A stretch of DNA of 37,153 bases from Candidatus Liptonbacteria bacterium. Lineage in GTDB: Bacteria; Patescibacteriota; Minisyncoccia; UBA6257; 2-01-FULL-56-20. Of this stretch, positions 3,963 to 37,153 are shown in pieces (position 1 is the stretch's first letter; each line of letters starts with the position of its first letter). Both the position numbers and the translations under genes were made by a program. The notes under the pieces are model-generated. The model was not told where the DNA came from, ran no database searches, and worked only from the letters and a program-made list of their open reading frames with translations. Location: NCBI GenBank assembly GCA_016182105.1, contig JACOXZ010000004.1, forward strand, positions 1 through 37,153, read 5' to 3'.

Positions 3963-4742
3963 TCAATTTTGCCGAAGGATTTCCTCGGCATTGCGGAAAC
4001 CTTTAATCGTGCCGCAGTCGAGCCGCCTGCCGCCAAATTCCCAACCATAGATAAGACCGTGAGCCTCGAGCTCCTTTTGGAAAGCTTCGGTAATGCCTAA
4101 GACGTCTTCATTTAATGATGCGAGGCCTCTCTCTAAGTTTTTAAGATTTCTTAGTATAGCCGGGGTCAAGGCATAGCCGCCCACAATCGTAAGGTTAGAG
4201 GGCGCTTCGCTAATTTTTGGCTTCTCTACAATTTCGGAAATTTGATAAAACCGTCGCCTTTCAGATCTTTTAATCCCTACCACCCCATAGCGCGGAACGA
4301 ATTTCCTCGGCACCCGCTCTAAAAGCAAAATAGGAGCTTGGTAATCATGAAAAAGCTTAATTAAAGAAACCAGGGGAGGTGGGTCGTGAGACAAGAGATC
4401 ATCGCAGTAGCGCACTACAAAAGGATCTTTTTTGACGAGATCAGCCGCTTGTAAAACCGCATGCCCGGTCCCCAGAGGTTTCTCTTGGAAACGAAAATGA
4501 ATTTTAAGTCCTTCAAGTTTTAGAGAATTAATACTTAAATACTTTTTAAAATATTTCTCATGGTTGGGGCTCACAACTAAAATAACTTCCTCGATGCCGC
4601 TTTCTTTGGCCTCTCGGAGCACATAGCCTAAAAGCGGATCGCCATTCAAAGGCACAAGGGCCTTGGGCGTACGCCAAGTAAGCGGCCGCAAACGTTTCCC
4701 AATACCGGCTACCGGCAAAACAAGCTTAGTAATTTTCTTCAT
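3963..4742 (-). CDS. galU: Sugar-1-phosphate nucleotidyltransferase, UTP-glucose-1-phosphate uridylyltransferase (GalU)-like. The likely start is the internal MKKITKLVLPVAGIGKRLRPLT; the ORF track extends it to 4790.
   Basis: N-terminal LPVAGIGKRLRPLT...PKALVP and EKPLGTGHAV motifs are typical of GalU/RmlA-type nucleotidyltransferases. An ATG at 4742-4740 directly abuts the stop of the upstream gene. Confidence 0.6.
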   Translation of the reverse strand: MKKITKLVLPVAGIGKRLRPLTWRTPKALVPLNGDPLLGYVLREAKESGIEEVILVVSPNHEKYFKKYLSINSLKLEGLKIHFRFQEKPLGTGHAVLQAADLVKKDPFVVRYCDDLLSHDPPPLVSLIKLFHDYQAPILLLERVPRKFVPRYGVVGIKRSERRRFYQISEIVEKPKISEAPSNLTIVGGYALTPAILRNLKNLERGLASLNEDVLGITEAFQKELEAHGLIYGWEFGGRRLDCGTIKGFRNAEEILRQN

Positions 4743-4743
4743 C

Positions 4744-5469
4744 TTATATACCCCACTCGGTTGAAGCAAGGATAAAAACGAGAAACACAAACAAAAAAGA
4801 AAGTCCTACGATGATTTTTTTAGGGAAAAGGAACCCCCGAAGATAATCTAAGGTTAAAGCCAGGATGACAAGCGTGAAGGCTCCGAAAAAAGCCATCTGA
4901 TAATAAAAGCTAAATGGCAGAAAAAGCAGGAGAAACGCAAGCTCAAGGCCAAGAAGACCAAGGATTCCAAGGGCAAGAAGCTTCTTGGAACTCCCAGCTT
5001 TCAAAGTTCGAGGACTCGAGAACTCTTCGTAGTTGTAGAGATTTTTGCTTAAAAGAAAAAGAATGGCGGTCATGACGAGTGACCAAAAAGTTACACTCAA
5101 GCTCCCCCAGCTAGAAAATCTATGGAAAAAACCGGAAGTGACAAGAAAAATTAAGGCTACAGTCATCAGCTTATAAGCTAAGACTCTTTTTATGAAAATA
5201 AGATCCTTAATTCCTAGGATTAAATAAAGAGTCAGACTTAAAAAAGCTCCTCTAACTAAACCTCTTTCGAAGACTGCGGCGCTTAGGGTCGTAAGAAGAA
5301 AAGGGAGTACCAAACGAAAAATTTGAAAAGGCGGAAAAAAATAAAGATAGAACGCTATCAAAAGGAAAAGCCAGAACGGCAAAAAAAGCCAGGCCGCCCC
5401 AAAGATGGCGGCCTTAAATATCAAAAACCAGGGAATTGACCTTGAAATTGACCTTAACTTTACTGCCAT
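4744..5469 (-). CDS. Polytopic integral membrane protein of unknown function. The start is uncertain because the annotated ATG overlaps the clpB 3' end by 56 nt.
   Basis: 241-aa, highly hydrophobic, multi-TM ORF. Confidence 0.45.
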   Translation of the reverse strand: MAVKLRSISRSIPWFLIFKAAIFGAAWLFLPFWLFLLIAFYLYFFPPFQIFRLVLPFLLTTLSAAVFERGLVRGAFLSLTLYLILGIKDLIFIKRVLAYKLMTVALIFLVTSGFFHRFSSWGSLSVTFWSLVMTAILFLLSKNLYNYEEFSSPRTLKAGSSKKLLALGILGLLGLELAFLLLFLPFSFYYQMAFFGAFTLVILALTLDYLRGFLFPKKIIVGLSFLFVFLVFILASTEWGI

Positions 5470-8076: not shown

Positions 8077-9348
8077 TCAGGGATTTGGCCGTTTGCCAAG
8101 AGTTACCCTAAGAGTTATCTCTTTGCCTCCGCGATTGATCTTTAGCTCTACCTTATCTCCAACGCCGAACTTCGAGATCGCTTCAATGAGCGTCCTGTCT
8201 TTGTCGATCTTTTCGCCGCTCACTTCTAAAATTATATCTTCCGCTTGAAGACCGAAGAGAGCCGCGGGTGAGTTTGGCTCCACGGCTGGTCCCTCATCGC
8301 TTCCTCTAACCAGTGCACCGTATTCAACCGGGAGTTTCTGCTGTTTCGCTATCTCCGGAGTCACTATAAAATAGCGAACCCCCAAAAACGGCGCCTGGAT
8401 CTCGCCCGTGGCTCTAACAGACTGGATATCGCGTTTAGCGAGATTCACTGGAATAGCAAAACCGATACTCTGGGCACCGGAGGCAATGGCCGTGTTAATG
8501 CCCACGACCTGGCCCCGTAGATTTAAAAGCGGACCGCCGGAATTGCCCTGGTTAATCGCCGCGTCGGTTTGAATTACGCCCTGAAGCCGTTCACTAAAAT
8601 CGCCTCCGCCAGAAGCAACGATGTTCCTTGAGAGGCCGGAGATAACACCTACGGAAACCGTGTTTCGGAATTCCCCTAAGGCATTCCCTATCGCAATCGC
8701 AGTTTGTCCGATCTCTAGAGTGTCGGAATCGCCGAGCTCGACCACCTTAAGGCCATGGGCTTCGATTTTAATTATGGCCAAATCCTGGGCTGGATCTCTC
8801 GCTAAAACTTTGGCTGAATATTTTTTGCCGTCATTCGTAAAAACAGTGTAGGAGGCCGTTCTGTCGGCAACCACGTGCTTGTTCGTCAAAATAAGGCCGT
8901 CAGAAGAAATAATGAAGCCGCTGCCGCCGCCAACTTCTTCAAACCTGGTGCCTTTCTCGCAGGGAACAAAAAATTGAGGAAACTGATCGCCGAAAAGATC
9001 CCTGAATTCCGGCGGCAAGTCTAGGAAAGGACTCGAAGGGCAATTTTCAATAATGGAAACATTCTTGGAGATAGTAATCGAAACCACTGCCGGCGAGGTT
9101 TTTTTAACCGCCTCAACCACTGCTCTTTCATAATCAATGGCTGGTTTATAAAGAGGAGTTGGGCTTTCTTTTGGCGGCTCGGTGGTCGGCGCTCCTGGTT
9201 TCTCGCCGGTTAAGGGCAAGATAAAGTTTTTGAAAAAGTCCTCAAAGATATTGGCCTTGGCCGTTTCTCTCGTAATCCCAAAACCGATGATTGCTCCTAA
9301 AAGTAGTATTCCCGAAAAGGCCAATAAAAATTTATAGCTTTTTTTCAT
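8077..9348 (-). CDS. htrA: HtrA/DegP-family periplasmic serine protease with a C-terminal PDZ domain. The likely true start is MKKSYKFLL. The ORF-track start at 9378 adds MRRSRSASNG, which is encoded by a terminal repeat of the element at 9346-9467.
   Basis: Trypsin-like catalytic motifs are present, including GNSGGPLLN. A PDZ-like C-terminus and an N-terminal TM anchor are visible. The gene lies 14 nt upstream of clpB on the same strand. Confidence 0.85.
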   Translation of the reverse strand: MKKSYKFLLAFSGILLLGAIIGFGITRETAKANIFEDFFKNFILPLTGEKPGAPTTEPPKESPTPLYKPAIDYERAVVEAVKKTSPAVVSITISKNVSIIENCPSSPFLDLPPEFRDLFGDQFPQFFVPCEKGTRFEEVGGGSGFIISSDGLILTNKHVVADRTASYTVFTNDGKKYSAKVLARDPAQDLAIIKIEAHGLKVVELGDSDTLEIGQTAIAIGNALGEFRNTVSVGVISGLSRNIVASGGGDFSERLQGVIQTDAAINQGNSGGPLLNLRGQVVGINTAIASGAQSIGFAIPVNLAKRDIQSVRATGEIQAPFLGVRYFIVTPEIAKQQKLPVEYGALVRGSDEGPAVEPNSPAALFGLQAEDIILEVSGEKIDKDRTLIEAISKFGVGDKVELKINRGGKEITLRVTLGKRPNP

Positions 9349-9467
9349 CCCGTTAGAAGCAGATCGCGATCTGCGCAAGTCTGCAGGTTTACCTTATTGT
9401 AACGACTATGCATTTGGTTGATATTCAATTTATTTGCAACGCGATCGCGGCTTCTAACGGGACTCAT
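9346..9467 (-). repeat. Copy 1 of the TIR-bounded intergenic element. Left arm CATCCCGTTAGAAGCAGATCGCGATCTGCG; right arm CGCGATCGCGGCTTCTAACGGGACTCAT. It spans exactly from the iscS stop (ATGA overlap) to the htrA ATG.
   Basis: Inverted repeat with a CCCGTTAGAAGC core, and each arm carries its own GATCGCGATC / GCGATCGC palindrome. The AT-rich centre is about 65 nt. Homologous copies are at 26963-27088 and 31175-31298, and a fourth pair flanks tRNA-Pro. Confidence 0.6.
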
Positions 9468-10768
9468 TTCAAAATTATTTTAATAATCCCAAGTCCATTG
9501 TCAATCTCGCTTTTAGTGGTTGGCCGGCCGAAACTTATCCGAAGACTTTTTTTAATCCGGTCTCCCGTAAAACCCAAAGCTTTAAGCACGTATGATGGCT
9601 CGGCGCTTCTTGACCGACAGGCTGAACCCGTTGAAACCGCTAAACCCCTTAAATCAAATTTAATAGTGAGATCTTCGGCCTCATAATCGGGAAAGTAGAT
9701 ATTCAAAATATTCGGCAGCCGCTCGCCTTTTTCCTTAGGACCGTTAAGTTCGACTCCTGGGTAAATTTTTTTTAGGCCCTCGAGAAAATACTCCGAAAGT
9801 TCCCGGAGGCGTTTAGCTTCTCTCTCTTTATTTTTTTGAATAAGTTCTACTGCCTTCGCAAAACCAACTACTAAGAGAACGTTCTCCGTGCCGGAACGCA
9901 AAGAGAACTCCTGGCCGCCGCCAGTGATAATAGGTTTTAGGTGATAAGTTTTAGGTGATAAGTTCCGAATGTATAGGGCGCCGACGCCTTTGGGACCGTA
10001 AATTTTATGAGCCGAGATGGTCATCAAATCAACCCCGAGCTTTTTGACATTACAATCTAAAAACTGGAATGCTTGGCTGGCATCGGTATGAAATAATGGA
10101 TAAAGCCAGCCAAATTTTCCTTCCCGGCTACCGCTCGGCCGCCCAGCGAGCGGCCTCGCTGGCGATGCTCCCTGCGCTCCTCCCCGCTCTGCGGGGAGAC
10201 CATGCCCGCTCGGTCGCATAGCCGCGCCAGCAAGGGAAATTTGGCTGGCCTTGAAGTCAGAGATAATTTTCGAAATCTCGGCTATTGGCTCTATAGTCCC
10301 AATCTCGTTATTAGCATACATTATCGAAACCAAGATAGTTCGCTCGTCCAAAAATGACTCGAGTTTTTTTAAATCAACCAGCCCTCCTTCTTGAACCGAA
10401 AGGTAGACTACCTCTACTCCTTCGGTCTTCAGATCCTCCACGGTTTCAAGAATTGATTCGTGTTCAATAGAGGAAACAATAATCTTGGGAATAACTGACG
10501 GATAATTTGCTTTAAAAACTTTAATCGCGCCCCGCAAAGCCAAATTATTAGCTTCGGTAGCAGAACCAGTAAAAATAATCTCGCGAAAATCAACGCCCAG
10601 AGCCGCGGCTATCGTCTCTCTTCCGCGATCTAGAGCGGCGATTGCTTCCTGACCGAAAGAATGAAGCGAACCCGGATTCCCGAAGGCCAGGGAGAAATAG
10701 GGCCTCATCGCCAATTCAACCTCCGGATGAACGGGGGTTGAAGAAGCGTAGTCTAAATATATTCTCAT
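9464..10768 (-). CDS. iscS: Cysteine desulfurase (IscS/NifS family, PLP-dependent). It carries an in-frame insertion of about 50 aa that is GC-rich at the DNA level.
   Basis: SAHKIYGPKGVGALY PLP-lysine motif and the C-terminal GSACRSRSAEPSYVL active-site Cys loop are present. The insert SQISLAGAAMRPSGHGLPAERGGAQGASPARPLAGRPSGSREGKFGWLYP lies between conserved blocks, as seen by comparison with the E. coli IscS sequence from memory. Confidence 0.85.
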   Translation of the reverse strand: MRIYLDYASSTPVHPEVELAMRPYFSLAFGNPGSLHSFGQEAIAALDRGRETIAAALGVDFREIIFTGSATEANNLALRGAIKVFKANYPSVIPKIIVSSIEHESILETVEDLKTEGVEVVYLSVQEGGLVDLKKLESFLDERTILVSIMYANNEIGTIEPIAEISKIISDFKASQISLAGAAMRPSGHGLPAERGGAQGASPARPLAGRPSGSREGKFGWLYPLFHTDASQAFQFLDCNVKKLGVDLMTISAHKIYGPKGVGALYIRNLSPKTYHLKPIITGGGQEFSLRSGTENVLLVVGFAKAVELIQKNKEREAKRLRELSEYFLEGLKKIYPGVELNGPKEKGERLPNILNIYFPDYEAEDLTIKFDLRGLAVSTGSACRSRSAEPSYVLKALGFTGDRIKKSLRISFGRPTTKSEIDNGLGIIKIILK

Positions 10769-18462: not shown

Positions 18463-20556
18463 TTAAAGCTGCTTTATCGAAAGACCAATCCTGCCGTCTT
18501 CGTCGGCTCTCACGATCTTCGCCTTAACAAAATCTCCGACTTTCAAAACATCGCTCACGTTTTTCACAAAACCGTCCTTGAGCTCCGAGACATGGATCAT
18601 GCCGTCCTTGCCGCCGCCCAAGTCCACTATCGCTCCGAAATCAAGAATCTTAATGACCGTGCCCTCTATAACCTCGCCGACTTTGAAATCTCGAGTAATG
18701 GCTTTGATCTCCTCTACCGCGGAGTCCATTTTATCCCGCTTGCTTCCCGAGACGAAAACCCGACCGTCGTCCTCTACGTCAATGCCAATGAGCTCATATT
18801 TCTTAATCAAACCCTTGATCATCTTCCCGCCCGGTCCGATCACAGCCCCAAGCTTCTCCGGATTCACCCTAAGTTGAGCGATATTCGGCGCATAGACGGA
18901 AATCTCGGGCCGTGGCGAGTGTATAACTGATTCCATAAGTTTCAAGATTTCGAGCCGGGCTTTTTTGGCCTGCTTCAAGGTCTCCTGAAGCATCTCCATG
19001 GTCAAACCTTCAATCTTCACATCCATCTGGATGGCGGTGAGGCCGTCTTTCGTGCCCGCAGCCTTCAAGTCCATATCACCATGATGATCCTCCGGCCCCT
19101 GGATGTCGGTCAATATCTTATATTTGCCGCTCTCCCCAGCCATCATCCCCATAGCAATTCCGGCTGCGAGCTTCGCAAGCGGCACTCCGGCATCGAAGAG
19201 AGAAAGCGAGGAAGCGCAGACAGTGGCCATTGAGGAAGACCCGTTTGAAGAAAGAATTTCGGAGACCACCCTGATCGTATAGGGAAATTGTTCCTGCGAA
19301 GGAATAAGCGAGCGCAGGCCTTTCTCAGCTAAGGCGCCGTGGCCGATCTCTCTCCGACCCGGGCCCCGAAAAGAGCCGATCTCGCCAACTGAGTAAGGCG
19401 GAAAGTTGTAGTGAAGCAGGAAGCGGCGTGTCGCGGTTCTCTCCATGGTCTCGATAAGCTGCTCTGCGCCGGGAGGGGCTAAGGTGGTTACGGCTAAGGC
19501 CTGGGTATTGCCTCGGATGAAAAGCGCTGAGCCGTGCGTCCGCTCAAAAATCCCGACTTCGGCATAAAGTTCCCGAACCTCGTCGAGACGCCTGCCATCC
19601 GGCCTTTTTTCTTTCTCCAAAATATTCTTGTGAACCAGCTCGTCAATGGCTTCTTCAAATAAAAACTCGGCAGCCTTATAGTTAAGGTTTTCAAATTTTG
19701 CTTGGAGATGCTCAAAATAAGATTTTCTAAGATCGGCAAGCTTCTCCTGAAACCCGCTTTTACTTGATTCGTAAACTGCTTCCTCCAAGCGGCTCGCCAA
19801 AAATTTCAAAGCTTCTGCTCTAAGTTCGGCTTCAACCTCGGCTAGGGCTATTTCAGCCTTCGGCTTTCCGACCTCCTGAACAATCGATTCCTGAAAATTA
19901 ATGAGTTTATCGATCTCTTCGGCGGCATAAGTCCATGCCTTGAGCACATCTTCTTCGGAGGCTTCTTTGCCAGCAAGCTCGATCATATTGATCTTGCCAT
20001 CTCTCCCTGCCGCAAAGGTTTCGAAAACAAAATCCGGTTTGGCTAAGTCAGAATTATTCGGATTAACTAAAAATTCTTTCCCTACTTTGGCAATTCTTAC
20101 CCCGCTAATTGGCCCGTTCCAGGGCACGTCAGAAATCCCGAGGGCGGTTGAGGCGGCAATAAGTCCTACAAAATCCGGCTCGTTCTCTTCGTCAAATGCA
20201 AGCACTGTGACCACCACCTGAATCTCACGCCTCACCCGCTGGTCGAAGAGCGGCCTAATCGCTCGATCAACTAAGCGGCCTGCCAAAATCGCCTCTTCTG
20301 ACGGCCGGCCTTCACGACGGATGAAACGGCTGCCGATGATCTTCCCAGCCGCATAAAATTTCTCCTCGTAGTCAACCTTAAGCGGAAGATAATCAACGCC
20401 CTCGTCTCGCTTGGACATAACCACAGTCACAAGCACTGCCGTTTCTCCATATTTGGCTAGGACTGCGGAATTGGCCTGCCCTGCGAGAGGTGAGATTTCT
20501 AAAGTCAGGGTTTTACCGTTAACCTCAGCAGAAAATTGCTTCTTTTCGAGTTTCAT
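18463..20556 (-). CDS. pnp: Polyribonucleotide nucleotidyltransferase (PNPase): two RNase PH domains plus KH and S1 domains.
   Basis: 697 aa with RNase PH-like motifs, and a C-terminal KH followed by an S1 domain (GEVIEGTVIKILDFGAIVDLGGGKDGMIHVSEL). Confidence 0.92.
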   Translation of the reverse strand: MKLEKKQFSAEVNGKTLTLEISPLAGQANSAVLAKYGETAVLVTVVMSKRDEGVDYLPLKVDYEEKFYAAGKIIGSRFIRREGRPSEEAILAGRLVDRAIRPLFDQRVRREIQVVVTVLAFDEENEPDFVGLIAASTALGISDVPWNGPISGVRIAKVGKEFLVNPNNSDLAKPDFVFETFAAGRDGKINMIELAGKEASEEDVLKAWTYAAEEIDKLINFQESIVQEVGKPKAEIALAEVEAELRAEALKFLASRLEEAVYESSKSGFQEKLADLRKSYFEHLQAKFENLNYKAAEFLFEEAIDELVHKNILEKEKRPDGRRLDEVRELYAEVGIFERTHGSALFIRGNTQALAVTTLAPPGAEQLIETMERTATRRFLLHYNFPPYSVGEIGSFRGPGRREIGHGALAEKGLRSLIPSQEQFPYTIRVVSEILSSNGSSSMATVCASSLSLFDAGVPLAKLAAGIAMGMMAGESGKYKILTDIQGPEDHHGDMDLKAAGTKDGLTAIQMDVKIEGLTMEMLQETLKQAKKARLEILKLMESVIHSPRPEISVYAPNIAQLRVNPEKLGAVIGPGGKMIKGLIKKYELIGIDVEDDGRVFVSGSKRDKMDSAVEEIKAITRDFKVGEVIEGTVIKILDFGAIVDLGGGKDGMIHVSELKDGFVKNVSDVLKVGDFVKAKIVRADEDGRIGLSIKQL

Positions 20557-20600
20557 ACATTCGTGGTATTCGCATAAATTCGTAGATTGGCATTATTTTT
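20557..20600 (-). promoter_or_regulatory. Conserved leader motif directly upstream of the pnp ATG. On the plus strand it reads ATTCGTGGTATTCGCATAAATTCGTAGATTGGCATTAT: three ATTCG direct repeats plus ATTGGCAT.
   Basis: It is about 90% identical to 28381-28427 upstream of the solute-binding protein gene. The same words also occur upstream of glyA at 36677-36770. Confidence 0.5.
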
Positions 20601-21743: not shown

Positions 21744-22614
21744 GTGATGGGACTAGAAAATCTTCTAAAAGATTATCTGAATTACCTGGAGATTGAAAAG
21801 AATAGAACGCTCGAGACCCGCGAAAATTACGAGCATTATTTGAATACCTTTTTGGCCTCGGCCAAAGTCCGCGACCCAGAAGAGATTACTGATAGAATCG
21901 TGCGCAATTTCCGGTTGACTTTGGCTCGGAAAAACATCAAAAAAATCACCCAGAATTATTACGTGATTGCCTTACGGAATTTCTTAAAATATCTAGTGAA
22001 GCGCGATATAAAAACCCTTTCGCCTGACAAAGTAGAGCTTCCTAAGGTAAGCCGGGCTGAAATTGAAACCTTGGAATATGAAGATTTGGAGCGCTTGCTT
22101 AAAGCTCCCAAAGGCCGCGACCCACGTAGTCTCCGCGACCGCGCGATTCTAGAAACACTTTTTTCAACCGGGCTCCGGCTTTCGGAACTTTGCGCCTTGA
22201 ACCGCTACTTGGATTTGAAACGGGGCGAAATTTCGGTTCGCGGCAAGGGCGGCAAGCTCCGGCTGGTTTTCATCTCGGACCGGGCCAAAGGAGCCATTAA
22301 AGAATATCTTCAAGGAAGGACTTGTGAGCCTAACTAAAAAAGGACGAGCCACCCACAGGATCACGCCCAGAGCCGTGGAACGTCTAGTTAATCATTGGGC
22401 CAAAGCCGCTGGCATCCCCAAAAAAGTCCACCCTCACCTCATCCGCCACCAATTCGCCACAGACCTTTTAATAAACGGCGCTGACCTCCGTTCGGTCCAA
22501 ATTCTCCTCGGCCACTCGAATATCTCGACCACCCAAATCTATACGCATTTAACCAACAAAGAACTCCGCGAGGTTCACAAAGCTTTTCACGGGAGAAGAC
22601 GAAAAGAAAAGTGA
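21744..22614 (+). pseudogene. xerC: XerC/XerD-like tyrosine recombinase split by a +1 frameshift near 22318-22326. Parts: 21744..22337 (N-terminal SAM-like plus start of catalytic domain) and 22324..22614 (catalytic C-terminus with HxxR and the Tyr nucleophile).
   Basis: The N-terminal LLKDYLNYLEIEKNRTLETRENYEHYLNTF resembles the XerC N-terminus. C-terminal motifs are [26 protein letters not shown]. The two frames join as ...EYLQGR / [10 protein letters not shown]... with one extra nucleotide. Confidence 0.65.
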
Positions 22615-23486: not shown

Positions 23487-23620
23487 GTGGGCAGGGAGGA
23501 TTTTCACTGCTCGGTCGCCGTCGGCGACCTCCGCTCTAAGAACCCTCGGTTCTTAGTATTCTCCGAGACGGGAGGACGTTATCTCCTCCCGACCCCTCCT
23601 TTTGTTCAAATCCTCCTATG
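23487..23620. repeat. Three-hairpin element, copy A. Hairpin 0 is GGTCGCC-GTC-GGCGACC, hairpin 1 is CTAAGAACC-CTC-GGTTCTTAG and hairpin 2 is CGGGAGGA-CGTTATC-TCCTCCCG. An inverted T-arm copy GTTCAAATCCTCC follows. A degenerate direct repeat of the tRNA 3' end (GGCAGGGAGGATTTTCAC) lies at the left.
   Basis: It is homologous to 33047-33160 (copy B), with compensatory changes in all three stems. Confidence 0.55.
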
Positions 23621-23675
23621 TGCCCCCGGGAGGATTTGAACCTCCACGCCTTTCGGCATACGGTCCTAAACCGTA
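23621..23675 (-). pseudogene. 3' fragment of a tRNA-Leu(UAG)-like gene: anticodon arm TACGG-TTTAGGA-CCGTA, long variable hairpin GCCGAAAGGC, T-arm GGAGGTTCAAATCCTCC and 3' acceptor strand CGGGGGCA. No matching 5' acceptor or D-arm is present.
   Basis: Hand folding of the reverse complement of 23621-23700. The 5' 25 nt neither pair with the 3' acceptor nor form a D-arm. Confidence 0.4.
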
Positions 23676-23729
23676 TGTGTCTTTGAAAACTGAAAACCGC
23701 AGTCAAACTAAGATAAAAAGGAGGATCAC

Positions 23730-25713: not shown

Positions 25714-26112
25714 CTAGCAACCCGCAAATGCTGATGGTCCACCCGTAAAGAATGACGAAAGAATAAGCGGAACGCCTTTCGCAAAAAGGGCAACGGCGAC
25801 GGCGATTGCTGCGTAAACTAATGTATGACTAGCAGATTTTACCTTTTCAGGATCACCTGCAGCTGTAAGGTACTTAAAGGCGGCGATCAGCACAAAAATG
25901 ACAGAAAGAACAATCAGAAGGGTAAAAAGCCAGCCGATTACGGAACATAAAACAGAGATTGCGCCTGTCAGGGTTGTGGGAACCGGCACGCTGGGGCCTT
26001 GAGCTAAAGCCAAGAGTGGTAGACCAATATTTGCTACCACCACCAAAGCAGTTATCTTCGAAAAATTCCTTTTCATATATTCAAGTTTTATTCGACCTTT
26101 CCCTAAATTCAC
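25714..26112 (-). CDS. TrbC/VirB2-like small membrane protein (pilin-like): signal peptide, two hydrophobic segments, and an AAGDPEKV motif between them.
   Basis: It is paralogous to the next two ORFs; the motifs are AAGDPEKV, SAGNPEKV and SAGSPEKI. The topology is typical of T4SS pilin-like proteins in small-genome bacteria. Confidence 0.45.
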   Translation of the reverse strand: MNLGKGRIKLEYMKRNFSKITALVVVANIGLPLLALAQGPSVPVPTTLTGAISVLCSVIGWLFTLLIVLSVIFVLIAAFKYLTAAGDPEKVKSASHTLVYAAIAVAVALFAKGVPLILSSFFTGGPSAFAGC

Positions 26113-26151
26113 TTTAGTATAGCATATGGGAAAAGCAAGTCCTGGGGATTT

Positions 26152-26517
26152 TTACGGAATTTGAAAGAAATTCTTAATAATAGCGGTTATCCCTAGGCCT
26201 AGAATGATGACAAGAAATCCGCCTACCGCCCAGAAAAGAGTCTTCTTGCCAGTTTGGACTTTCTCGGGATTCCCGGCTGAAGTCAAAAGCTGGAAAGCGC
26301 CTATTAAAACCATAATTGAGACAATGGGGATAGCGACATAGAAAAGGGCTTCCGCAATTTTGGTGGCCACGCAGCCTAAATTGGCATTCACGCCACTGCA
26401 GTTGCTGATTGGATTTACAAGGTTGATGGAGATTTGGTGACCGCTAACATGAGTAGCTAAGGCCCTCTCAAAAAGACCGCTCCAGCTTAATATTTTTTCC
26501 AGAATCCAGCTAATCAT
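26152..26517 (-). CDS. TrbC/VirB2-like small membrane protein, paralog 2.
   Basis: LLTSAGNPEKVQTGKK motif between two TM segments. Confidence 0.45.
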   Translation of the reverse strand: MISWILEKILSWSGLFERALATHVSGHQISINLVNPISNCSGVNANLGCVATKIAEALFYVAIPIVSIMVLIGAFQLLTSAGNPEKVQTGKKTLFWAVGGFLVIILGLGITAIIKNFFQIP

Positions 26518-26536
26518 TAATTTGAATTATATCATT

Positions 26537-34720: not shown

Positions 34721-35453
34721 CTAGTTTAAGCTGTAAAAATTCTCGAAGATCTTCGCAACTAGGATTGGGCCGGTGCCGCTTGGAACAGGTGTATAGGTTA
34801 TAGGTTTTAGGTTATAGGTTGGGGACGAAAGCGAAGCAGCGTCGAAGTCGCCACGGCCGTTGTCGTAGCCGAAATCAATGAGGAGTGCACCGGATTTGAG
34901 CATCTCGGGCTTGATGAGTCCTGCCTTACCGACGCCGGAGATGATAAGGTCCATATTTTTCAAAACACCGAAATCACTGCCTCTATCCAGAACATAAAGT
35001 TCGCGAACTTTTCCCAAGAGCCAGGTCACGATAACCTTGCCAACTAAAAAGCCGGTTCCCACGACCGCCACCTTGCTAGTGAGTATAAAACGCGCCAAGC
35101 GCCCGTTCGCCCAAAACATCCACGTCCTTTTCGCGAGGAATGACATTCAAGATATAGTGCTTATTCAAATGCTCAGGAAGTGGCAACTGCACAATCACCC
35201 CGCCGCAGGTCTTGTGTTTTGAAATTTTTAACACTTCTTCTCGGAGCGAATCGTTTTTAATCTCTTTAGGAAATTTATAAAGCCGGAAATCTACCCCCAG
35301 CTCTTTCGCGGCTTTTTCTTTTTGCTTTAGGAAACTGATTGACGCGGGATCCTCGCCAACCAAAACTGTGGCCAAGAATTTTTCAGGTTTTGGTTTAGAC
35401 CGCAGTTTAGCAAGAATACTTTCAGCGATTTTTTTGCCGTCGATAACATTCAT
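34721..35453 (-). pseudogene. folD: Bifunctional methylenetetrahydrofolate dehydrogenase/cyclohydrolase FolD, disrupted. The N-terminal ORF 35076..35453 and C-terminal ORF 34721..35146 overlap in different frames. The conserved PCTP segment appears to be missing. The C-terminal part carries an in-frame insertion of about 8 aa (PTYNLKPI) encoded by the 23-nt repeat.
   Basis: N-terminal: …GVIVQLPLPEHLN…EKDVDVLG… C-terminal: …VAVVGTGFLVGKV…SGVGKAGLIKPEMLKSGALLIDFG…TPVPSGTGPILVA… Compared with E. coli FolD from memory, about 23 residues around PRLRPCTPRG are absent. Confidence 0.55.
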
Positions 35454-36676
35454 AATCCTTTCGAATATTTAAGCGGAAAATCGCGGCAAAGTTTTTTAAC
35501 CCCTAGAGATACATTCTTTCCTCTCGAAAGTACTTCGCCGATCAAGTTGCCTATTATTTTCATTTCTCTCTCCTTCATCCCGCGCGTGGTCAAGGCCGGC
35601 GTGCCGAGGCGAATTCCAGACGGGTCCATCGGCGGTCGCGGATCGAAAGGAATCGTGTTTTTGTTCACGATAATTCCTTGGGCTTCGAGCCGGTCGCTCA
35701 CTTCACGGCCAGTAATCCCCTTGTCTCGTAAATCTAGGAGCACGAGGTGAGTGTCAGTGCCGCCGGAAACCAGCCGAAAACCCTGGCGTTTCAATTCCTC
35801 GGCGAGCGCCTTTACGTTTTTTACGACTTGCTTCGCATATTTCTTGAAACTCGGTTGCATCGCTTCATAAAGCGCGACAGCAGTCGAAGCAATTTGATTC
35901 GCGTGCGGGCCGCCCTGAAGGCCAGGAAAAACGGCTTTGTCTATTTTTGAGGCCAGTTCTTTTTTACAAAAAATGAGCGCTGCACGCGGACCGCGGAGTG
36001 TTTTGTGGGTCGTGGTCGTAACCACATCCGCATACTTAAAAGGAGACGGATAGACGCCGCCCGCAACGAGTCCGGCAAAATGCGACATGTCTACCATAAA
36101 ATAAGCACCCACGACATCAGCGATCTTTCTGAACTTTTTGAAATCAATGATACGGGGGTAAGCGGTGTAGCCCGCAATAATGAGCTTCGGTTTCTCCCGC
36201 TTCGCGATTTTCATAATCTCGCTGTAGTCCAAGAGTTCGGTTTTGCGATTCACGCCATACTGCACTGACTTCCACGCTTGCCCGGTAATACTCACCTTGT
36301 GTCCATGCGTTAAGTGACCACCCATATCAAGCCGGAGGCCCATAATTTTTTCGCCGAATGGCACGAAGCCGAAATAAACGGCGAGATTAGCCGGCGAGCC
36401 AGAATAGGCCTGGACATTCACATGCCATGCACGCGGCGAGAGCTTAAAGAGCTTCAGCGCACGCTCTTTGCAAAGATTTTCTATTTCGTCAATTACCGCA
36501 TTACCGCCATAGTACCGGGCGCCGGGGTACCCTTCGGCATATTTATTAGTTAAAGGCGAACCCAGGGCCCGAAGCACCCCACCCGAGACATAATTCTCTG
36601 AAGGAATGAGATTTAAAGTGTCATCCTGACGCTTAATTTCTTTCTTTATTAAATTCTCAATCAGCTTGTCCTTCAT
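35450..36676 (-). CDS. glyA: Serine hydroxymethyltransferase.
   Basis: 408 aa. The PLP-lysine region VVTTTTHKTLRGPR is present and the sequence is collinear with SHMT throughout. Confidence 0.92.
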   Translation of the reverse strand: MKDKLIENLIKKEIKRQDDTLNLIPSENYVSGGVLRALGSPLTNKYAEGYPGARYYGGNAVIDEIENLCKERALKLFKLSPRAWHVNVQAYSGSPANLAVYFGFVPFGEKIMGLRLDMGGHLTHGHKVSITGQAWKSVQYGVNRKTELLDYSEIMKIAKREKPKLIIAGYTAYPRIIDFKKFRKIADVVGAYFMVDMSHFAGLVAGGVYPSPFKYADVVTTTTHKTLRGPRAALIFCKKELASKIDKAVFPGLQGGPHANQIASTAVALYEAMQPSFKKYAKQVVKNVKALAEELKRQGFRLVSGGTDTHLVLLDLRDKGITGREVSDRLEAQGIIVNKNTIPFDPRPPMDPSGIRLGTPALTTRGMKEREMKIIGNLIGEVLSRGKNVSLGVKKLCRDFPLKYSKGL

Positions 36677-36770
36677 ATAAATTTATGATGCAAATCTACA
36701 AATAATATGCCAATCCACAAATTGCGAATTCGCAATTAGCATAATTGGCATCAAATTCGCATTATTGGCA
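36677..36770 (-). promoter_or_regulatory. glyA upstream region built from the same words as the pnp and solute-binding-protein leaders: ATGCCAAT … TTGCGAATTCGCAA (14-nt palindrome) … ATTGGCAT, then AATTCGCATTATTGGCAT.
   Basis: Direct comparison with 20557-20600 and 28381-28427. Confidence 0.4.
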
Positions 36771-37153
36771 TCACGGAGTGAATACTTCCTTATCCCGGTG
36801 CATCTGCGGAACCATCATCTCTGGATGCCAGGATTTTTTGAGTTCTTCGACGTCAGATGAACCTTGATACTTTCCGCCCTCGCCAACATAATCTTCAACT
36901 TTGCTAACTAAAGGCGCCACTTCATAGAAAACCATCTGGGCAATCCTGCGGCCGACAACAAGAGGAATAAAATAGTGCTGGGAATTGTTGGTGACCTCCA
37001 TGGTCCATCGATTGTAATAGCCCACGTCGCCCCATCCAGCGTCTTTGCAGACCTCGACGAAGTTTCGGCCCAAAGACGACCGGGCGTACATTTTGGCCAC
37101 GCAAATATCCCTGCCGCCCACAAATTCTTCGGTGTGAGCGAGAATCGTTTCTC
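36771..37153 (-). CDS. dcd: dCTP deaminase / dUTPase-superfamily protein, C-terminal part. The N-terminus lies beyond the right edge of the window.
   Basis: …ARSSLGRNFVEV…AGWGDVGYYNRWTMEVTNNSQHYFIPLVVGRRIAQMVFYEV… matches the Dcd C-terminal half (GRSSLARLG…DPGW…LEF). The frame stays open through position 37153. Confidence 0.55.
   Translation of the reverse strand, partial: ETILAHTEEFVGGRDICVAKMYARSSLGRNFVEVCKDAGWGDVGYYNRWTMEVTNNSQHYFIPLVVGRRIAQMVFYEVAPLVSKVEDYVGEGGKYQGSSDVEELKKSWHPEMMVPQMHRDKEVFTP

Follow-up and report, generated by a model that had tools for sequence, protein, structure and literature searches.

Why would two unrelated genes begin behind almost the same 38 nucleotides (nt)? 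The question is raised by a 37,153-nt contig of a Candidatus Liptonbacteria bacterium (JACOXZ010000004.1, positions 1 to 37,153 of the forward strand; hereafter the window), in which pnp and a gene for a solute-binding protein are each preceded by a near-identical sequence. The original prediction, made from the letters of the window, saw a leader shared by these two genes. We find that these 38 nt form a single arm of an element which is scattered through the intergenic regions of the Patescibacteria, or Candidate Phyla Radiation (CPR); it is no private leader of two genes, and the family is found throughout this group. The two copies in the window and the genes behind them are as follows.

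Positions 20559..20596, minus strand: arm copy 1, reading ATTCGTGGTATTCGCATAAATTCGTAGATTGGCATTAT on the plus strand; a single arm of four head-to-tail units, outer unit at 20586-20593
Positions 18463..20556, minus strand: pnp, polynucleotide phosphorylase (NF008805, E 3e-254), downstream of copy 1
Positions 28389..28426, minus strand: arm copy 2, reading ATTCGTGGCATTCGTATTAATTCGTAGATTGGCATTAT on the plus strand; a single arm, outer unit at 28416-28423
Positions 27085..28380, minus strand: family-1 extracellular solute-binding protein (PF01547, E 1e-26), downstream of copy 2

As originally reported, the copies at 20559-20596 and 28389-28426 are identical at 35 of 38 positions when read on the plus strand. 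They had also been placed 1-7 nt from the ATG; the closeness holds but the figures do not, since the coordinates were slightly wide and the gaps from inner end to ATG are 2 nt for copy 1 (pnp ATG at 20554-20556) and 8 nt for copy 2 (ATG at 28378-28380). In gene sense, copy 1 reads ATA followed by ATGCCAAT CTACGAAT tt ATGCGAAT a CCACGAAT, and copy 2 reads ATA followed by ATGCCAAT CTACGAAT ta ATACGAAT g CCACGAAT; the form common to both is ATA followed by ATGCCAAT CTACGAAT nn ATRCGAAT n CCACGAAT. In copy 1 the ATTCG repeats start at 20559, 20568 and 20578 and an ATTGG at 20586, so that successive starts are 9, 10 and 8 nt apart. A hidden Markov model (HMM) of the arm, described below, recovered copy 1 with an E value of 5.9e-10 and copy 2 with one of 9.9e-10 in nhmmer.

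Drift does not account for this likeness, as had been argued at the outset, and neither does a larger recent duplication. The gene-sense 19-mer ATAATGCCAATCTACGAAT occurs twice exactly in the window and once more with three mismatches (36685-36703, plus strand), while shuffles give 0.02 matches on average. A repeat search of the window found 44 nt of similarity between the two copies, at 89% identity and with unrelated flanks, and because the similarity ends there the copies are not parts of a segmental duplication. Chance similarity or a duplication private to the contig, which might be entertained because just three loci in the window are involved, is thus next to impossible: it is refuted by the low expectation, by the unrelated flanks and by hundreds of copies in other genomes.

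Both copies are half-elements that sit within a stop-to-start spacer, between an NYN-domain gene and pnp in one case and between gyrA and the solute-binding-protein gene in the other. The outer unit of copy 1 overlaps the TAA stop codon of the NYN-domain gene (20593-20595) by 1 nt, and that of copy 2 lies 4 nt from the gyrA stop codon (TAA, 28428-28430), which is the modal distance in the CPR; both single arms therefore follow the stop-codon distance rule set out below. As RNA, the leader with copy 1 is unstructured (minimum free energy 0 kcal/mol) and that with copy 2 reaches -1.2 kcal/mol. An inner end this near an ATG was found for 3 of 49 arms, two of the three being the window's own, so the pnp and solute-binding-protein copies are an unusual single-arm form with the inner end set against the ATG.

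The third locus, upstream of glyA, carries the complete form.

Positions 36728..36773, minus strand: distal (stop-adjacent) arm, units ATGCCAAT, ATGCGAAT, ATGCCAAT, ATGCTAAT and TTGCGAAT
Positions 36720..36737, no strand: centre of the element, a perfect 18-nt palindrome AATTGCGAATTCGCAATT at which the arms meet without a loop
Positions 36685..36729, plus strand: proximal (start-adjacent) arm, units ATGCAAAT, CTACAAAT, ATGCCAAT, CCACAAAT and TTGCGAAT
Positions 35450..36676, minus strand: glyA, serine hydroxymethyltransferase, downstream of the two-arm element and followed by a split folD

The glyA 5' spacer (36677-36770) is filled by ten related units, five of the ATGCNAAT type on each strand. 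Those of the distal arm lie at 36764-36771, 36755-36762, 36744-36751, 36735-36742 and 36728-36735, the outer one overlapping by 1 nt the TGA stop codon (36771-36773) of a dCTP-deaminase-like gene. The proximal arm has degenerate cores (CAAAT), and its outer unit (36688) lies 11 nt from the glyA ATG (36674-36676). We confirmed the perfect 14-nt palindrome noticed originally (TTGCGAATTCGCAA, 36722-36735), which extends to the 18-nt AATTGCGAATTCGCAATT at 36720-36737; the whole element folds as RNA with -37.9 kcal/mol (z -5.5). A related palindromic region is indeed present before glyA, as had been claimed, but it is not a rearranged version of the other two: the glyA copy is the canonical, converging two-arm form.

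Anatomy and spread of the element

We scanned a genome collection, with one representative genome per species, for the degenerate pattern ATGCSAAT-N3-CGAAT-N5-CGAAT; the resulting counts are lower bounds and the taxon labels are the depositors' own. The pattern matches at least 115 stretches, so the copies in the window are far from the only ones. Among the matches listed, ~105 are in CPR-type contigs of more than 20 candidate phyla and 8, random-looking, are in clearly non-CPR genomes; by our own arithmetic, chance alone would give ~35 matches in 2 x 596 Gb if the base composition were uniform. A fourth C[GA]AAT core, which the pattern does not force, is present in 83 of 113 CPR matches and in 0 of 8 non-CPR matches. 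Carriers within the Parcubacteria/Paceibacteria are Nomura-, Taylor-, Zambryski-, Wolfe-, Yanofsky-, Jorgensen-, Lipton-, Moran-, Falkow-, Buchanan-, Jackson-, Andersen-, Kerfeld- and Doudnabacteria, and further ones are Saccharibacteria, Microgenomates (Woese- and Roizmanbacteria) and Gracilibacteria. The GC content of the loci with CPR matches spans 0.29-0.59. Canonical CPR-type arrays also occur in two loci labelled Gammaproteobacteria (L039 and L104) and in one labelled Chloroflexi (L112), and these labels may be wrong or the bins contaminated. The pattern had no match in 2.9 million viral contigs, and a phage origin or phage mimicry is rejected on this ground.

The element appears to be undescribed, in the sources that we searched, as regards its unit, architecture, positional rules and taxonomic breadth. 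Covariance-model searches with Rfam returned four tRNAs in the window and no family at the arms, and across 18 element-rich loci rRNA, tmRNA and tRNA alone, all away from the elements; the 16S hit, in L059, is atypical. The full-text literature, queried also with exact 15-16-mers and with a paper on the Patescibacteria SOS network outside its scope, gave no description of it, and the TM7x promoter cassettes used in Saccharibacteria genetics are without the motif. Dispersed intergenic repeats and array operators as such are already known kinds of element.

To describe the arm we aligned 110 CPR arms, from which the HMM was also built. Their consensus is a flank A-n-R-Y-R followed by ATGCSAAT MTR CGAAT nn ATR CGAAT nnnn CRAAT. 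Several positions that the scan pattern did not force are nevertheless conserved (T+9 in 86%, A+18 in 75%, T+19 in 89%, Y-2 in 94% and R-1 in 85%), and these define the unit as a quasi-palindromic 8-mer, ATRCGAAT. Four or five such units, head to tail, make up an arm; counted from the outer end, the cores are spaced 8, 10 and 9 nt in 44 arms and 8, 10 and 8 nt in 25 arms. A unit-by-unit measure of conservation from non-seed anchors was uninformative because registers mix. Outside the outer unit stands a conserved flank of 3-6 nt ending in RYR, and the palindrome runs ~6 nt past the outer unit in two flavours, ending in ACG or in ATA, with the same flavour at both ends.

A complete element consists of two arms that converge on a centre of 0-55 nt, with their outer ends toward the neighbouring genes. 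This geometry is strict: pairs of core arrays are converging in 63 cases and diverging in 1, and pairs found with the HMM in 27 and 1. Single arms occur in both orientations (32 versus 33). The HMM found 173 arms in ~0.75 Mb of loci that had been selected for containing one, almost all of them intergenic. The density is roughly 1 element per 12 kb, and the estimated number of sites per genome is roughly 60-100. Arms within one genome share the bases of their spacers, flanks and loops, with an identity of 0.63 compared to 0.39 between genomes. In one locus (L017, ~4640-4760 and 440-500) a small GC-rich hairpin of the GGCTGCC-TGAAC-GGCAGC type caps the outer end of each arm, and the same locus has a single arm between two terminator-like hairpins.

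Placement of the arms next to genes

The outer ends of the arms keep characteristic distances to the neighbouring genes. They lie 6-9 nt from the start codon in 25 of 75 cases, and of 70 outer ends next to a stop codon 17 are 4 nt away from it and 7 overlap it by 1 nt (TAAtgc); the inner end is usually at least 60 nt from the nearest gene. In compact spacers the two-arm element spans the whole interval from stop codon to start codon. Arms are present in 18% of tandem and 20% of divergent spacers and in 9% of convergent ones, and most of these "convergent" cases hold uncalled small open reading frames (ORFs) or tRNA-like sequence. The location in the 5' regions of genes proposed for the copies in the window is thus borne out across the family, whose arms favour spacers that hold a gene start. 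An intrinsic terminator can be excluded as the nature of the element: arms are rarer in convergent spacers, the single arms are unstructured, and the three canonical terminators found in such spacers all stand upstream of the element. A scan also gave no terminator-like site at the arms of the window. In L035 a terminator is followed after 16 nt by a single arm and, 6 nt further on, by the ATG, which places the arm over the core promoter; L019, L042 and L091 each have an arm a short way upstream of a canonical -10 box.

The functional categories of the downstream genes, which the original prediction proposed to check, are overwhelmingly housekeeping. Elements flank nusA five times, ssb four times, and secY, rplX, pilC-type and recJ-like genes three times each, as well as genes for the ribosomal proteins L4, L11, L7/L12, L13, L15, L16, L22 and S7, and tuf, frr, smpB, groEL, recA, mreB and the gene for trigger factor; ruvA is another neighbour. 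In two loci (L054 and L030) elements separate tight groups of genes. We also noted a CIRCE-like inverted repeat (TTAGCACTC-N9-GAGTGCTAA, the HrcA operator) immediately upstream of an arm in L108 (~2930-2965). In L040 (3150-3260) an arm directly follows a stop codon and is itself followed by a tRNA D-arm-like sequence (TAGTCTAGTGGTTAGG), which may belong to an intron-containing tRNA; ARAGORN made no call there.

Translation starts in these genomes set the background for such short distances. In ~107 CPR loci (L002-L115), Shine-Dalgarno-like sequences precede 10% of the genes that have a real upstream spacer, and -10-like hexamers (TAnnnT) peak 6-7 nt before the ATG, which together suggest that leaderless or near-leaderless mRNAs are common. 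Among arm-adjacent genes, 0 of 41 have a Shine-Dalgarno-like sequence. Several genes of the window have TGnTAnAAT boxes 6-9 nt before the ATG.

Against this background we considered whether the arm itself could be a sigma-70-type promoter cassette, possibly bidirectional, that is reused before highly expressed genes with no dedicated factor. This is the main rival to the operator reading developed below, and we regard it as unlikely. In the outward direction the consensus arm reads TTCGYA-N16/17-TAKATT-N6-R(+1), the base at -1 being Y, and the geometry follows directly from the consensus because the 8+10+9/8 spacing makes an exact 17- or 16-nt spacer. The verdict that the spacing does not look sigma70-like was therefore only half right: the geometry is correct but the match reaches just 7-8 of 12 positions, and the hexamers lack the consensus -12T and -35G. 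The conserved Y-2/R-1 flank, the outer ends 6-9 nt from the ATG where short or absent leaders are normal, and downstream genes of highly expressed types are all in line with a promoter, which would account for the geometry, the gene set and the turnover in position described below. The succession of terminator, arm and ATG in L035 is another point in its favour. A promoter scan returned TTGGCC-18-GATAAT (9/12) overlapping the outer end of the solute-binding-protein copy and TTGGCA-17-CATCAT (9/12) at glyA (36713-36685, minus strand), but no site at the pnp copy. The arm could also form overlapping -10 hexamers on both strands with A+5 and T+9 as positions 2 and 6, with starts at -2 and +16, 18 bp apart. 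Bidirectional promoters with -10 positions 2 and 6 paired and starts 18 bp apart have been described (bioRxiv 10.1101/2020.01.31.928960), and A+5 and T+9 fit that model; the hexamers are weak, however, and the extra CGAAT units and the second arm are left unaccounted for.

Other features fit a promoter poorly. The conserved CGAAT cores inside the would-be spacer and the fifth unit have no explanation as promoter parts, and in the window itself the orientation of the arms is wrong for firing outward. An arm next to a stop codon would transcribe antisense into the gene upstream, yet such arms are conserved equally with start-adjacent ones (20:20, Wilcoxon p 0.85) and have the same base preferences. 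The -10-like hexamers inside elements are divided evenly between the strands (71 sense, 77 antisense), and a directional promoter within two-arm elements is rejected on this ground; this symmetry of arms and hexamers fits a palindromic operator better than a directional promoter. No arm was found within 200 nt upstream of 25 tRNA genes or upstream of one 16S gene, a small sample, and the absence of the pattern from viral contigs likewise speaks against a promoter.

The layout between stop and start codon also raises the possibility that the element acts at the RNA level, with the arms pairing, in a polycistronic transcript, into a long imperfect hairpin. The transcript could then be processed or stabilised at this site (RNase III or REP-like), or the site could couple termination of one gene to initiation of the next; the conserved cores would be explained by an RNA-binding protein with sequence specificity. 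Two-arm elements do fold strongly as RNA (-28 to -42 kcal/mol, z -3.4 to -5.6) and fit their spacers exactly, between a stop codon 4 nt away on one side and a start codon 6-9 nt away on the other. The lack of Shine-Dalgarno-like sequences next to arms, the elements between ribosomal-protein genes and those that part tight gene groups would be in keeping with this, as would a second palindromic element, unrelated to the arms, which the window shares with L070 and which has the same stop-to-start layout. However, we found no covariation between arms beyond the shared consensus at either spacer or core-N positions: partner arms have a spacer identity of 0.55 compared to 0.50 +/- 0.026 for shuffled, unrelated partners, and a core-N identity of 0.53 compared to 0.47 +/- 0.026 for unrelated arms. 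Single arms in both orientations, which are different RNA sequences, are well conserved although they fold no better than shuffles (0 and -1.2 kcal/mol for those of the window). A selected hairpin is therefore excluded, and the missing covariation together with the unstructured single arms indicates selection on the sequence of each arm and not on pairing. Elements in divergent spacers and their rarity in true convergent ones, canonical terminators that stand upstream of the element instead of being replaced by it, and the lack of an Rfam family are further points against an RNA-level role, which we consider rather improbable.

A predicted operator and competing readings

Most likely, if still tentatively, the element is a multi-site operator or a promoter-operator cassette bound by a predicted DNA-binding protein conserved across the CPR. 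Such a protein would recognise each quasi-palindromic unit (AT-N-CG-N-AT) and would assemble cooperatively along the arm, from a high-affinity outer unit inward. The assembled protein might then cover or flank the core promoter of the downstream gene, and the outcome would be co-regulation of mostly housekeeping or highly expressed genes. Anatomy, distribution, positional rules, the lack of arm covariation and the association with particular genes are direct observations, from which we infer protein binding, DNA rather than RNA as the target, and a regulatory outcome. A protein-DNA interaction is suggested by the CG-centred 8-mer kept phylum-wide, by the ordered head-to-tail arrays and strict converging geometry, and by the absence of covariation, the equal conservation of both arms, the restriction to 5' regions and the coherent housekeeping set. 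Of the shared regulatory module proposed originally, the shared and selected cis-element stands, and it may be a promoter, an operator or both.

Arrays of this general kind have precedents. Operators that bind proteins as cooperative arrays include those of omega of plasmid pSM19035 (7-bp heptads, direct or converging), the MetJ met-boxes (8-bp tandem repeats) and the ParR/parC iterons. The arms resemble these in being contiguous short repeats at or near a promoter that use direct and converging arrangements and avoid diverging ones; they have 4-5 contiguous units, direct or converging, and in L035 and L019 lie over or next to core promoter positions. Each ATRCGAAT unit is also, like the met-box AGACGTCT, quasi-palindromic around a central CG. 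In contrast to the omega, MetJ and ParR systems, arms stand at both edges of the spacer with an irregular spacing of 8/10/9, and their sites, several dozen per genome by the estimate above, adjoin housekeeping genes and not one operon or plasmid locus. The two opposed arrays, with a strong outer site and closely spaced inward sites, recall the DnaA-box arrays of E. coli oriC. Unlike the DnaA boxes (TTATCCACA), however, the unit is unrelated in sequence and present in many copies per genome, at gene starts and not at the origin. To our knowledge, the motifs of sigma-54, ECF sigma factors, Fur, ArgR, PurR PurBox, Spo0A, MraZ, DnaA and dif/Xer differ from the arm.

We also compared the arm with the LexA/SOS box. 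The Gram-positive-type box, CGAAC-N4-GTTCG, shares the CGAA core, and ssb, recA and ruvA are among the neighbours of the element. However, the core of the arm always ends in T. Where this type of box is a palindrome of 14 bp with GAAC/GTTC half-sites before DNA-repair genes, the CGAAT cores recur in direct orientation every 8-10 bp, and most neighbouring genes belong to the translation machinery, with secretion genes also prominent; the arm does not fit a box of this type.

Several observations weigh against the operator. No transcription-factor family recurs among 111 proteins encoded next to elements, so that there is no sign of an autoregulated transcription factor beside its sites; nor did a candidate for the binding protein emerge from the neighbouring genes, in keeping with the original prediction, which named no factor. 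Elements lie between ribosomal-protein genes that are co-transcribed in other bacteria, which could indicate a role at the RNA level. A loop of 0-55 nt would be unusual for one rigid oligomer touching both arms, and the 8/10/9 spacing is unlike that of known cooperative arrays (7, 8 or 10-11 bp). Our loci were picked by a strict pattern match with three cores forced, and their genes were called with a simple ORF finder and are crude. Finally, the positions of elements are not conserved between related genomes, and this turnover, together with the within-genome identity of 0.63, suits copy-propagated repeats or mobile promoter cassettes better than binding sites that arose in place.

The pnp locus illustrates the turnover. 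The closest other polynucleotide phosphorylase (PNPase) to the product of the window's pnp is 71% identical, and the gene order S15-NYN-pnp is kept in relatives. In three of these, with PNPases 64-70% identical, no CGAAT arm was found in the NYN-pnp spacer (L116 2427-2500, L117 2440-2500 and L118 2437-2500), while elements occupy other spacers, among them a full two-arm element in the S15-NYN spacer of L118. Their NYN-pnp spacers have other short tandem repeats instead, of the GAATAGA type in L117 and two copies of CTTGACACATGACC in L118.

Such turnover would be expected of a selfish repeat resembling a miniature inverted-repeat transposable element (MITE) or a repetitive extragenic palindrome (REP), in which the arms are terminal inverted repeats with sites for a CPR-wide transposase or nuclease and any host function is incidental. 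Inverted terminal repeats in fixed orientation (63:1) and subfamilies that share spacers, flanks and loops within a genome, at the identities given above, are both found here; the single arms resemble solo terminal repeats, there is more than one palindromic family per genome, and PD-(D/E)XK (PF13366) genes lie beside 3 elements. Like the REP sequences and their mosaic arrays (BIMEs) and like MITEs such as the Neisseria Correia elements, ours are dispersed intergenic inverted repeats of ~90-120 bp with genome-specific subfamilies, which occur between operon genes and may have promoter-like ends. A REP or MITE family, however, stays within one species or genus, whereas the CGAAT core is superphylum-wide, present across more than 20 candidate phyla and the whole GC range, and made up of arrays of 8-bp units. 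The bases just outside the arm ends (3-6 nt) are inverted-complementary at 59 of 90 positions and directly repeated at 10 of 90, so no target-site duplication is visible there. No gene for a RAYT (Y1 transposase) or any other transposase was found among the 111 neighbouring proteins, whole genomes being outside the scope of this search. A single arm, unlike a REP/BIME repeat, has no hairpin of its own and folds no better than shuffles, and the 5' bias at essential genes and the retention in streamlined genomes of ~1 Mb, where no spare bases are left around the element, argue for a function in the host. We therefore consider a selfish repeat quite improbable. Putative mobile promoters are a related case, and one that the original observation matches exactly: they too are near-identical 40-nt segments before non-homologous genes and are similar within a genome, but they lack the internal repeats, the palindromic full form and the conservation far past one genome. 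These readings are not mutually exclusive, and a promoter-operator cassette propagated by copying would merge the operator, promoter and repeat views.

A signal for DNA uptake by the competence and type IV pilus machinery of the CPR is highly improbable. A lineage-wide core with genome-specific dialects, inverted pairs in intergenic regions and some neighbours in genome maintenance (ssb, recA, recJ-like and ruvA) could be expected of such a signal. Known uptake sequences, however, are single 9-12-mers that occur about once per kb in coding and non-coding DNA alike, whereas the arms are arrays with a fixed internal order and spacing, at ~1 element per 12 kb and almost exclusively intergenic; their fixed polarity toward genes would also go unexplained. 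Saccharibacteria are naturally transformable, and the report of this mentions no uptake sequence (PMC10633639).

Returning to the operator, a broader form of it is possible though doubtful: the Patescibacteria may have a lineage-defining punctuation system, in which one predicted DNA-binding protein, common to the whole radiation, polymerises on ATRCGAAT arrays at both edges of a spacer. If so, genes for translation, secretion and DNA maintenance would have their promoters set, gated or insulated by this protein, which could act as a global growth switch of bacteria that depend on hosts and have reduced genomes; no such switch would then be described for other phyla. Almost nothing is known of the control of gene expression in the CPR/Patescibacteria, despite their large share of bacterial diversity, and a 35-40-bp cis-element across more than 20 candidate phyla offers a concrete starting point. 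The arm could serve as bait for a global regulator, in genome-wide scans that define its regulon, as a portable promoter or operator part testable in the few genetically tractable Saccharibacteria, and as a practical marker of CPR contigs. Together with leaderless, Shine-Dalgarno-poor starts, the arms also inform the calling of gene starts in CPR genomes.

Other repeats and split genes in the window

The second palindromic 5' element is ~115-125 nt long and occurs at 9346-9467, 31175-31298 and 26963-27084 (minus-strand sense). The outer stems read TCCCGTTAGAR..GATCGCGATC and the inverse. At three genes of the window the 3' stem, with CTAACGGG at its end, runs directly up to the ATG, and the 5' stem of the copy at 9346-9467 starts where the upstream gene has its stop codon. 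It folds as RNA with -40 to -45 kcal/mol (z -4.3 to -7.1) and has no Rfam match. The same element occurs twice in L070 (4447-4561 and 7809-7919), from another CPR genome, where it is flanked by CAT and ATG.

Two further repeats are present. A 24-29-nt sequence, CTATAACCTAAAACCTATAACCTA, occurs three times (33748-33771, 34794-34817 in inverted orientation, and 9932-9960), with one copy in a folD fragment and one in an aminotransferase gene. A 40-nt direct repeat, 78% identical between 23534-23573 and 33077-33116 and containing the hairpin CTAAGAACCCTCGGTTCTTAG, follows a hydrolase gene and an S1 gene, with a tRNA-like sequence at ~23630-23700; it may be a terminator that both genes have in common, or the remnant of an attachment site.

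Next to glyA, folD is split into two overlapping ORFs (34721-35146 and 35076-35453) for the catalytic and the NAD(P)-binding domain, and a Xer-like tyrosine recombinase beside rpsO is also in two parts (21744-22337 and 22324-22614). Both splits reflect frameshifts, indels of the assembly or pseudogenes. The solute-binding-protein gene is directly followed by three small genes in tandem (25714-26965), whose domains resemble type IV secretion pilins (PF18895/TrbC).

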